A stretch of 64,000 nucleotides of DNA from Escherichia coli (GCF_045037415.1 NZ_CP173438.1); one strand, 5' to 3'; shown: positions 60,101-63,100, counted from the stretch's first letter. Numbers are program-made.

Positions 60101-63100
60101 CAGTAATGTTGTTGGGCGAACGGTATTACGAATGAGTGGAGCAGTAATAAATACACACAGCAGCGAACCCACGGTGTAGATACTGAGTAATTTGATCGAC
60201 ATGGTGTATGACATGCCAGCGACAAATTGTCCGTATTGTGCCAGCCACTGGCTAACCAGATAAAACGTTGCCATTGAGATATAGCCATATAGGGAATAAC
60301 TGGCTAAATCGATAATTGAACAGCGATGTTCCGTAGAGCTGGTGGTTTTCTTTATGACAGGTAAGTGACGACCCGGATGGGGTGGGAACGTACAACGGTA
60401 TAAAAACAGAGCGTTAATAAACATAATGCCTGCGGCAATCATAAAGGACCAACCGAACCACAGTTCAGCCCACACTAACAGGCTGATAATTAGCGGTAAT
60501 AAAAATTGTCCGCTGGAAACAAATGCTTTAATTAAAATATTGGCTGTACCCGGTGAGCGTGGAAAAGCTTCCATCAAACTGGGATAGGTGCCTGCATCGA
60601 GAAAACTGTTTGCCATTCCCGCCAGAAAGCCAAAAACATAAGCGATAATGATGTTATTGGTGTGCAGGATGCCAAAAAAGAAGGCCATATAGCAGCACAT
60701 CCCGAGCATGATAAAAGGGCGGCGACCAAAGCGATCGGATAATAATCCTGCAAAAAGCAAGACACTTAATCGACCAATGCCCAGTGATGAGATAACTATC
60801 GAGACGCCCGCGGCATTAGTCTGCCAAAGCGTCTCCAGCGAGGCCATATTCAGGCTCATCAAAATGACGCCCATACCATGCACCAGGTAATTAAAATACA
60901 ACCCAAGTGCGGTAGGGTAATAGGGATTTTTCATAGGTTCTACTTAGCAAAGGTGCTTTAAAAAGTGTAGCGATGTTGTGTCAGTATCCGTTCATTATTG
61001 TTGTAACAACGACAATTCCTTTCTGTGGAGAAATTAACAAAGCCGCTCCAGATCGTGTGCATATAATTCAGCGGCTACCGATTGATAGATCTTCCAGTCA
61101 ATAAAATTGCCATCAGGGTAGACTTGTTGAAACGCGGTTAAGTCGGGGAAAAAACGCATGGTGTTGTTGCCGATGCGGTTATTTATTTTCTCTATGATTG
61201 CATGAAGATGTTTTTTTCGTTGCTGACGCATAGCCAACAGTTGCTCGACTACATAATCAGGAATGGCGCATTTGCCATTTTCCCACTGACGCCAGCTTTC
61301 ACTGTTACCGGTCTGGGCAATCCAGGTCGCGCATTCATCAATAGTCATGGCAAAAATATGGCGAAGTGCCTGGAGTTCATAAGCGTTCATCGTGTAATGG
61401 CTGCATGAAATAAACAATAAAATATAAATAACATTATCAGCCTGCTGACGGCTTGAAGAGAGTCACAGTATCTTGTGCAACATTATTGGAAAGAGTGAGG
61501 GGCGAGGTAGCGAAGCAGAAAAATGTTAAAAAAAAGCCCATCGTGGGAGATGGGCAAAGACTACACACAGCAATTCGTTGTTTCACTCAGGGGATTTCCA
61601 TGCTTATAAATCAATATGTTGATTTATAACCGTGAGCTAATAGTAGGCATACGGACTTTTTGCGTCGATCAGATTCGTCTCATTAGTTTAAAAACTGTAA
61701 AGAATTTGCGACAGGTACTACCAGCTGAATAGCGGTAAGCAGGAAAATATGGGGAAGAGCAAGCAAATATCAATTAGCAGGGGTTAACAATCAGGCGGCA
61801 GAGCCGCCTGATGAGAAATTACTTATTCGATTTCTCGATTTCGCCAAGTTCTTCGAGAATTTCTTCCGGTTGGTCCGTCGGCGGTGGGACTTCTTCCACC
61901 CACGCGGCAAACAGACGCCAGGAAACGGCTAACAGAACCGGACCAATAAACAGACCGATCATCCCGAAAGCAATCAAACCACCAATAACGCCAGAGAGGA
62001 TCAGGATCAGCGGTAAATCGGCACCCATGCGAATTAACATTGGGCGGATGACGTTATCGAGCGTGCCAACCACACCGCTCCAAACTAACAATACCGTTCC
62101 CCAGGTGGTATCGCCAGTCCAGTAGAGCCAGATAATCGCCGGAATCAGTACCGGCAACGGTCCAAGCTGGACAAGGCAGGAGAGGATCATTAACACCGTT
62201 AGCAAAGTTGCATAAGGTACGCCGGATACGGCGAGGCCGATACCGCCAAGCACTGCCTGTACTAACGCCGTCACCACCACACCCAGCGCCACCGCGCGGA
62301 TAGCCTGTGCCGCCAGCAGCACGGCGGCATCTCCGCGAACGCCTGCCAGACGGGTTGCAAAATGGCGAATGCCTTGTGCCACCTGTTCACCGCGCCAGTA
62401 CAGCAGGGCGCTGAAGAGAAGCATCAGCGCACAATGCACCATAAAGCGCCCGATATGCGCCGCCTGCCCAACGAACCAGGTGGTGGTGGTGCCAATATAA
62501 GGACGGACTTTCGCCATGATCGCCGTCCCCCCCATATCCAGCAAATTGTGCCAGCCTGCATATAGCTTCGCGCCAATCACCGGAATGGTATTAAGCCACG
62601 CCAGATCGGGTAACGTCATGTCACCACTGGAAATGGCTTTAATTAGCGGGCCGCTGCCGTCGACGATACTGTTAACCAGCAAAGCAATAGGGATGATAAA
62701 CACCATCACTAATAACAGCGTCATCACCAGAACGGCGAGAGAGCGGCGACCAAACATGATCTTTTGCAAACGTAACAATACCGGCCAGGTGGCGATAACC
62801 ACTGTACCGGCCCATGCAAAGCCGAGAATAAAGGGTTGTACAATCCACAGACATGCCACAATCATGATGGCTAAAAACAGCACCGAAAGCAGAATTTGTG
62901 CGACATCCCTGGGCTGACGAACATTTACCATAACTACTTTTCACCTTTTTTGTGCGTCAAATCGTCGACGCGACGTGAACACGCGAAACTCACCTGCATA
63001 ATGATGAGCAATTTCAGCGGTTTTTAACAGGTCGATTCTGCCCTTAATTCTGATGGGCGTGTTAGAAAAAAATGTGGTACAACAACTCAGGCAACACGCA

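Follow-up and report, generated by a model that had tools for sequence, protein, structure and literature searches.

The rprA locus between ydiK and ydiL

The DNA considered here, referred to as the window, is a stretch of 64,000 nucleotides (nt) from Escherichia coli (GCF_045037415.1 NZ_CP173438.1), one strand of which was read 5' to 3'. Between the genes ydiK and ydiL it carries on the minus strand a 105-nt element, 61633..61529, that is the gene of the small RNA (sRNA) RprA. The element reads ACGGTTATAAATCAACATATTGATTTATAAGCATGGAAATCCCCTGAGTGAAACAACGAATTGCTGTGTGTAGTCTTTGCCCATCTCCCACGATGGGCTTTTTTT, starting with ACGGTTATAAATC and ending with GATGGGCTTTTTTT, and the features of the locus are the following.

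61529..61633, minus strand: RprA sRNA, 105 nt (Rfam RF00034, identity with K-12 b4431, RefSeq annotation)
61669..61682, minus strand: RcsB box TGAGACGAATCTGA, at -49..-36 from the RprA 5' end (match to consensus and crystal)
61663..61668, minus strand: -35-like hexamer TCGACG, at -35..-30, four of six positions matching TTGACA, directly abutting the RcsB box
61640..61645, minus strand: -10 hexamer TACTAT, at -12..-7, separated from the -35 by 17 bp
61604..61629, minus strand: 5' stem-loop, a perfect hairpin of 11 bp spanning RprA nt 5-30 (minimum free energy fold, covariation)
61564..61604, minus strand: RprA nt 30-70, single-stranded, the region of pairing with the rpoS leader and the narP translation initiation region (duplex calculation and literature)
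61529..61575, minus strand: 3' module RprAproc, the last 47 nt, with the seed AUUGCUGUGUGUAGUCUUU and the terminator (literature, alignment)
61528..61555, minus strand: rho-independent terminator, stem-loop 61555..61536 followed by T8 at 61535..61528 (terminator scan)
61819..62931, minus strand: ydiK, AI-2E family transporter, upstream neighbour outside the sRNA (open reading frame and RefSeq)
61034..61390, minus strand: ydiL, downstream neighbour outside the sRNA (open reading frame and RefSeq)

Comparison of the whole window with Rfam 15 places the RprA family (RF00034) at 61633..61526 on the minus strand with 118.5 bits (E = 1.6e-16), well above the gathering score of 70 bits, and the match is untruncated, spanning model positions 1-108 of 108. 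From -87 to +105 the sequence is 100% identical to rprA of K-12 MG1655 (b4431, 1770372..1770477), i.e. over 105 of 105 nt of the element together with 87 bp upstream, and in the 441-bp alignment of the intergenic region with K-12 all five substitutions fall outside the gene and its promoter. The 3' end differs by source, the K-12 annotation giving an RNA of 106 nt, and Rfam and the Prokaryotic Genome Annotation Pipeline one of 108 nt that extends to 61526. The 5' end at 61633 lies 185 nt past the ydiK stop codon, and 138 nt separate the element from the start codon of ydiL, downstream of it on the common strand. An original prediction for this DNA had proposed an RprA gene of this length, strand and position, free of open reading frames and closed by a hairpin with a U-run, and it is borne out on all of these counts; the open reading frames that overlap the element are short mechanical ones of 24-58 amino acids. 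Identity and boundaries are direct observations, and nothing in the data contradicts the identification as rprA.

Several complete E. coli chromosomes match the 901 bp around the element at 100% identity, and on them ydiK, rprA and ydiL are annotated by RefSeq. The 172-bp interval 61529-61700 was found in 5423 of 5426 complete E. coli genomes, with at least 99% identity in 5233 of 5424 matching records, where it is annotated as rprA; the RefSeq product label at the locus is 'antisense sRNA RprA', and thousands of E. coli genomes have rprA between ydiK and ydiL. To judge from these genomes the rprA locus belongs to the core genome and is essentially invariant across E. coli. An otherwise identical 901-bp ydiK-rprA-ydiL region is split in two by IS1 in E. 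coli 20AR0479 (NZ_CP195410.1 2353834-2355510).

The locus is almost certainly the chromosomal E. coli rprA with its RcsB-dependent promoter, a free-standing gene for an Hfq-dependent trans-acting sRNA. Both the gene and the promoter are already known, and the locus is an ordinary one.

The promoter and its RcsB box

The original prediction expected the promoter and an RcsB box within 61634..61700, upstream of a -10 hexamer, and had been unable to place the box. All of these elements lie inside that interval: the box at 61682..61669, then the -35-like and -10 hexamers listed above. Structural study of Salmonella RcsB gives the consensus of the homodimer box as TN(G/A)GAN4TC(T/C)NA, and RcsB has been co-crystallized on Salmonella rprA promoter DNA covering -53..-33, 5'-CTATTGAGACGAATCTGATCG-3' (PMC7913699). 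The box TGAGACGAATCTGA fits the published consensus exactly and is identical, in equal register, to the core of the crystallized Salmonella promoter. This match, together with the literature on the identical K-12 gene, agrees with the activation by the Rcs phosphorelay that had been predicted. The exact placement of box, -35 and -10 in the window is added by this analysis; as an architecture it is directly observed, and RcsB binding and Rcs-dependent induction in vivo, which are known for the identical K-12 sequence and for Salmonella, may be expected by analogy at this exact site in this strain. Two overlapping calls of the sigma-70 scan further upstream, at 61773..61744, were discarded, their number being not above chance.

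Conservation across Enterobacterales

A cross-species sample was assembled from one genome per species by exact match to a 20-nt core, TGCTGTGTGTAGTCTTTGCC, which yielded at least 120 loci; 116 of the loci listed, the window included, had enough flank for promoter analysis, and 115 sequences entered the fold alignment. The loci come from across Enterobacterales, with Escherichia, Citrobacter, Enterobacter, Klebsiella, Pantoea, Erwinia, Serratia, Yersinia, Dickeya, Pectobacterium, Photorhabdus, Xenorhabdus, Providencia, Proteus, Morganella, Edwardsiella and Arsenophonus among the genera. The counts that follow refer to these listed loci.

Exactly one match to the RcsB box lies within 130 nt upstream in 109 of 116 loci, against a background in the same loci, rprA boxes excluded, of about 0.003 per 130 nt. 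The sequence of the box varies by lineage, with TGAGACGAATCTGA, TAAGAGGATTCTTA, TAGGATGATTCTTA and TCAGATGATTCTTA as its forms, and the hexamer after it is TCGACG, ATGACT, AAGACG or alike in nearly all homologous loci. A TANNNT hexamer follows the box by 22-25 nt in 108 of the 109 box-bearing loci (96 of them at exactly 23 nt; background 9%). Between the -10 hexamer and the conserved core lie anywhere from 44 to 87 nt, so that this promoter geometry is conserved independently of the length of the RNA. The box and -10 geometry together form what reads as a strong phylogenetic footprint for an RcsB-dependent promoter. An exact box within the 130 nt upstream is lacking at L031, L053 (Edwardsiella), L041 (Arsenophonus nasoniae), L044 (Moellerella) and L074 (Proteus penneri), either because control has diverged there or because the length of the RNA exceeds the span of 130 nt that was searched. 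The A. nasoniae rprA has a box with one mismatch, TTAGAGTTATTTTA.

The 3' end and the middle of the RNA differ in how widely they are kept. The 3' 47-nt module is conserved in every listed species, including the terminator stem and U-tail that lie outside the search pattern, while the UCCCCUGA segment (61586..61594 in E. coli), which is implicated in rpoS and narP pairing, is found in only 74 of 116 loci; the lineages of Yersinia, Providencia, Photorhabdus, Xenorhabdus and Proteus lack it and have a different middle region. Because the module is universal and the rpoS-pairing segment is not, the 3' seed is suggested to be the ancestral functional core of RprA. That the box-23 nt--10 geometry and the 3' module are conserved throughout Enterobacterales is shown here across about 115 species. 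In Pectobacterium sp. CFBP8739 (L110:10809-10930) the RprA linker just 5' of the seed contains a tandem duplication of about 14 nt, with AGAGTTAGTAACGA present twice.

Of the neighbours, ydiK is the constant one: a homologue lies upstream on the common strand in 86 of the 87 loci with enough flank, at a median gap of 270 nt. This near-universal same-strand linkage is what might be expected if the element were a 3'-untranslated-region product or the terminator region of ydiK, and yet such an origin is very improbable, given that the RNA has a promoter of its own, with RcsB box, -35, -10 and fixed spacing conserved in 108 of 116 loci, and that both the Rfam model and the K-12 annotation begin at 61633, at the distance from the ydiK stop codon noted above. 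The literature likewise has rprA driven by Rcs from its own promoter, and ydiK has a hairpin of its own at 61810..61792. That hairpin, CAGGCGGCTCTGCCGCCTG (61792-61810, minus strand), is a perfect GC-rich stem of 8 bp beginning 9 nt after the ydiK stop codon; it lacks a T-run after it, was not flagged by the terminator scan, and is probably a ydiK 3' end or a stabilizer structure.

The downstream neighbour gives the opposite picture. In E. coli the element lies close before the start of ydiL, on the strand of that gene, and like an attenuator it ends in a terminator, which could point to a cis-acting leader or attenuator of ydiL, but ydiL follows rprA in just 10 of the 106 loci with enough downstream flank, with RNA and promoter conserved throughout. 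The hairpin with its T8 is moreover strong and constitutive-looking, and the minimum free energy fold offers no alternative antiterminator, which leaves a ydiL leader with next to no probability.

RNA structure and terminator

Three stem-loops make up the minimum free energy fold of the window RNA: at nt 5-30 the 5' hairpin of 11 bp, at nt 60-74 a small one, and at nt 79-98 the terminator. In the terminator hairpin GCCCATCTCCCACGATGGGC, at 61555..61536, seven pairs, five of which are G-C, close a 6-nt loop; T8 comes after the hairpin, and no other terminator-like site was found in 61300..61950. The stem is preceded by UAGUCUUU, so that the RNA shows the features of the Hfq type: a Rho-independent terminator, a U-tail and an AU-rich stretch beside a stem-loop. 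Hfq binding by RprA has been reported (PMC3708529).

In the 115-sequence alignment 90.8% of cells of the whole fold are standard pairs, a share that falls to 31-42% once the partners are shifted by 1-3 columns. Both-sided changes occur in 12 pairs (75 cells), and the covariation score was reached by none of 500 shuffles. Compensatory changes affect nine of the 11 pairs of the 5' hairpin; in the terminator three of seven stem pairs have both-sided changes and 99.3% of cells are paired. Because the search pattern had fixed RprA nt 62-81, which comprises helix 4 except two 5' bases and the 5' side of the first three terminator pairs, the invariance of that helix and of those three pairs is uninformative; the signal is that of the 5' hairpin and of the terminator's inner pairs, e.g. 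ATC/GAT, TTC/GAA, AAC/GTT and GTC/GAC. The 4-bp 5' helix of the Rfam consensus was set aside in favour of the 11-bp minimum free energy hairpin, which has the support of covariation. The secondary structure of RprA, with its 5' hairpin and 3' terminator hairpin, is thus supported by covariation, which is itself directly observed. A small protein encoded here, such as a 49-amino-acid GTG open reading frame at 61586..61437 or a 24-amino-acid one at 61557..61483, is hardly credible even though mechanical open reading frames do overlap the element, as these read through the terminator and T-run, the 5' half of the alignment is rich in frame-breaking indels and displays base-pair covariation instead, and no such coding sequence is annotated in the RefSeq records inspected.

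Regulation, processing and targets

In the literature on the identical gene of K-12 and on Salmonella, the RcsCDB phosphorelay and CpxAR both induce rprA, and LrhA represses it (PMC5861431; PMC9262595). RprA activates rpoS by opening an inhibitory leader structure and shielding the mRNA from RNase E, and it represses csgD and ydaM (PMC4152358). Repressed targets also include hdeD and others identified by RNA sequencing after MS2-affinity purification (PMC5861431), as well as narP, which is contacted through RprA nt 30-70 in a pairing validated by mutation (PMC9262595); lrhA too is among the RprA-repressed targets in the literature. In Salmonella RprA activates ricI (PMC6202311). RNase E recognizes an RprA stem-loop, probably the 5' one, and by cleavage frees a short form (PMC6202311). 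This form, RprAproc, has been defined as the last 47 nt (PMC9262595).

Taken with the features of the locus, these reports allow a course of events to be proposed for the window. Transcription would start at 61633 from a weak sigma-70 promoter, TCGACG-17-TACTAT, driven by an RcsB dimer on TGAGACGAATCTGA abutting the -35, and because the promoter depends on the RcsB box RprA would be made upon envelope stress sensed by the Rcs phosphorelay; CpxR, according to the literature, would add to activation and LrhA would repress. Transcription would stop at the GC hairpin and U-tail, giving an RNA that has a long hairpin at its 5' end, is single-stranded in its middle (nt 30-70), and carries the seed and terminator at its 3' end. 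The middle would pair with the upstream arm of the rpoS leader hairpin, so freeing the ribosome-binding site and protecting the mRNA, and would also pair with the translation initiation regions of the repressed narP, csgD, ydaM and hdeD. RNase E cleavage would then yield the 47-nt 3' form, which carries the most conserved seed and may regulate further targets. Hfq dependence, processing and target regulation in this strain are carried over from the literature or inferred, and are probable to the extent that the K-12 and Salmonella genes are a guide.

For rpoS the pairing was calculated with local sliding-window duplexes of RprA nt 30-78 against the K-12 rpoS leader. The best duplex joins RprA nt 34-72 to leader positions -134..-95, the upstream arm of the leader hairpin, at -30.5 kcal/mol, and in it the leader segments AAUUCGUU and GGGGAAAUCC face RprA AACGAAUU and GGAAAUCCCC. 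An unrestricted RNAduplex run of full RprA against the leader was rejected as it returned a meaningless whole-molecule duplex with huge interior loops.

A number of caveats attach to this reading of the locus. Expression of rprA in this strain is predicted from its DNA sequence. A consensus sigma-70 scan did not call the rprA promoter, because the -35 is weak (the -35/-10 pair matches eight of 12 consensus positions); a weak -35 is also consistent with an activator-dependent promoter. The RcsB-box pattern is not enriched in the 64-kb window, with three matches against 2.3 expected, and since the count alone is uninformative over such a length the weight falls on the position of the box and on its phylogenetic conservation. 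The energy of the rpoS duplex was equalled by nine of 100 shuffled RprA sequences (z = -1.5), so that complementarity alone does not prove rpoS to be a target; the duplex is consistent with the mechanism and not independently significant. RpoS levels, finally, are little changed in rprA knockouts (PMC4152358). The positive effect on rpoS translation that was predicted for this RNA is thus upheld by the literature and is at the same time incomplete, as knockouts alter RpoS little and further targets exist; the label 'rpoS activator' understates and partly misstates the physiological role of RprA.

RprA-related sequences on mobile elements

Outside the window, elements resembling RprA are present on plasmids and phages, at the following places.

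L124:3955-4057: mobile copy
L126:3447-3549: mobile copy
L125:3930-4057: mobile copy
L127:3001-3106: mobile copy
L102:6583-6670, minus strand: mobile copy

These copies keep the exact seed ATTGCTGTGTGTAGTCTT and a terminator, and their 5' part is unrelated to that of RprA and forms two GC-rich hairpins. They score 45.9-63.4 bits with the Rfam RprA model, under the gathering threshold of 70, and are unannotated. The carriers include P1-like phage-plasmids, namely Enterobacter pJBIWA008_2 (near lpa and pacA) and that of E. coli CH468 (near tRNA genes and a Tad2 anti-Thoeris gene), plasmids of E. hormaechei, C. freundii and K. quasipneumoniae, a contig of a Citrobacter metagenome-assembled genome, and the temperate E. 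coli phages Eeyore, LLS and Flotzy. A search of the phage collection with full RprA gave no match, and the phage copies surfaced only with a plasmid-borne variant as query. In Eeyore the copy lies just downstream of a CI-like repressor gene on the same strand; the idea that it marks an attP site beside an integrase was dropped, no integrase being annotated within 3 kb. The phage and plasmid versions differ by a compensatory change in the second hairpin, GGGGG...CCCCC versus GGTGG...CCACC, which hints at a structured, functional RNA on these mobile elements. The searched literature contained no description of RprA-like or prophage RprA-mimic elements, which does not in itself establish novelty.

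In Phytobacter massiliensis (NZ_HE578945.1) a complete rprA with its RcsB box (L047:~815-920) is followed about 8 kb downstream, on the same strand, by a second copy of the 3' ~70 nt only, as a direct repeat (L048:1165-1284). The insert between the copies has genes for a tail tape-measure protein of the lambda type and for a C4 antisense RNA; no integrase domain was found among the open reading frames of at least 100 amino acids in the part of the insert contained in L047, which is all but the last ~1.2 kb. Flanking by such a duplication is what site-specific integration at the 3' end of a gene for a small RNA usually leaves behind. Because the duplicated rprA 3' end flanks an insert with a phage tail gene and a C4 antisense RNA, the insert looks like a prophage remnant integrated into the rprA 3' end with duplication of the attachment (att) site.

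It is conceivable from these sequences, though on balance doubtful, that mobile elements have captured the 3' 47-nt module as an sRNA mimicking the seed and that the chromosomal rprA 3' end can be used as a prophage attachment site; alternatively, the mobile copies may be inert attP sites or recombination scars. Were capture to have occurred, a lysogen or plasmid could drive the RprAproc regulon of the host without Rcs signalling, and sRNAs on mobile elements that copy a host seed would offer a route to hijack the control of envelope stress, biofilm or conjugation.

Other RNA family matches in the window

Three further Rfam matches lie elsewhere in the window. The phenylalanine attenuator leader Phe_leader (RF01859) is at 32725-32849 on the plus strand (74.4 bits, gathering 55), and the enterobacterial sRNA STnc540 (RF02082) at 36690-36848 on the plus strand (67.4 bits, gathering 38), the latter missing large inner parts of the model. 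The sRNA ES036 (CssrF; RF02751) is matched at 10724-10766 on the minus strand with 42.9 bits, just over the gathering score of 37.6.

Comparison with known systems

The closest known system is RprA of E. coli K-12 (b4431; RF00034), and the window has the identical RNA, promoter, RcsB box, terminator and flanking genes. With gene and promoter the same and five substitutions in the surrounding intergenic DNA, the window comes from an E. coli strain other than K-12, and for the window the outcome is a correct annotation only, rprA being unchanged from K-12. In the Salmonella Typhimurium rprA promoter (PMC7913699) the 14-bp box core TGAGACGAATCTGA and the next three bases, TCG, are identical to those of the window in the register -49..-33, and just upstream of the box Salmonella has CTATT where the window has CTAAT. 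Salmonella RprA is 106 nt long (PMC6202311).

DsrA and ArcZ, the other Hfq-dependent activators of rpoS, share with RprA, according to the literature, the target arm and the 'anti-antisense' opening of the ribosome-binding site. They differ in having unrelated sequences and other promoters, and in responding to other signals, low temperature for DsrA and ArcAB with oxygen for ArcZ, and they are not members of the RprA family. The phage and phage-plasmid elements have in common with RprA the RprAproc seed AUUGCUGUGUGUAGUCUU and a similar terminator, and differ from it in their unrelated GC-rich 5' hairpins and in having neither an RcsB box nor a ydiK neighbour.

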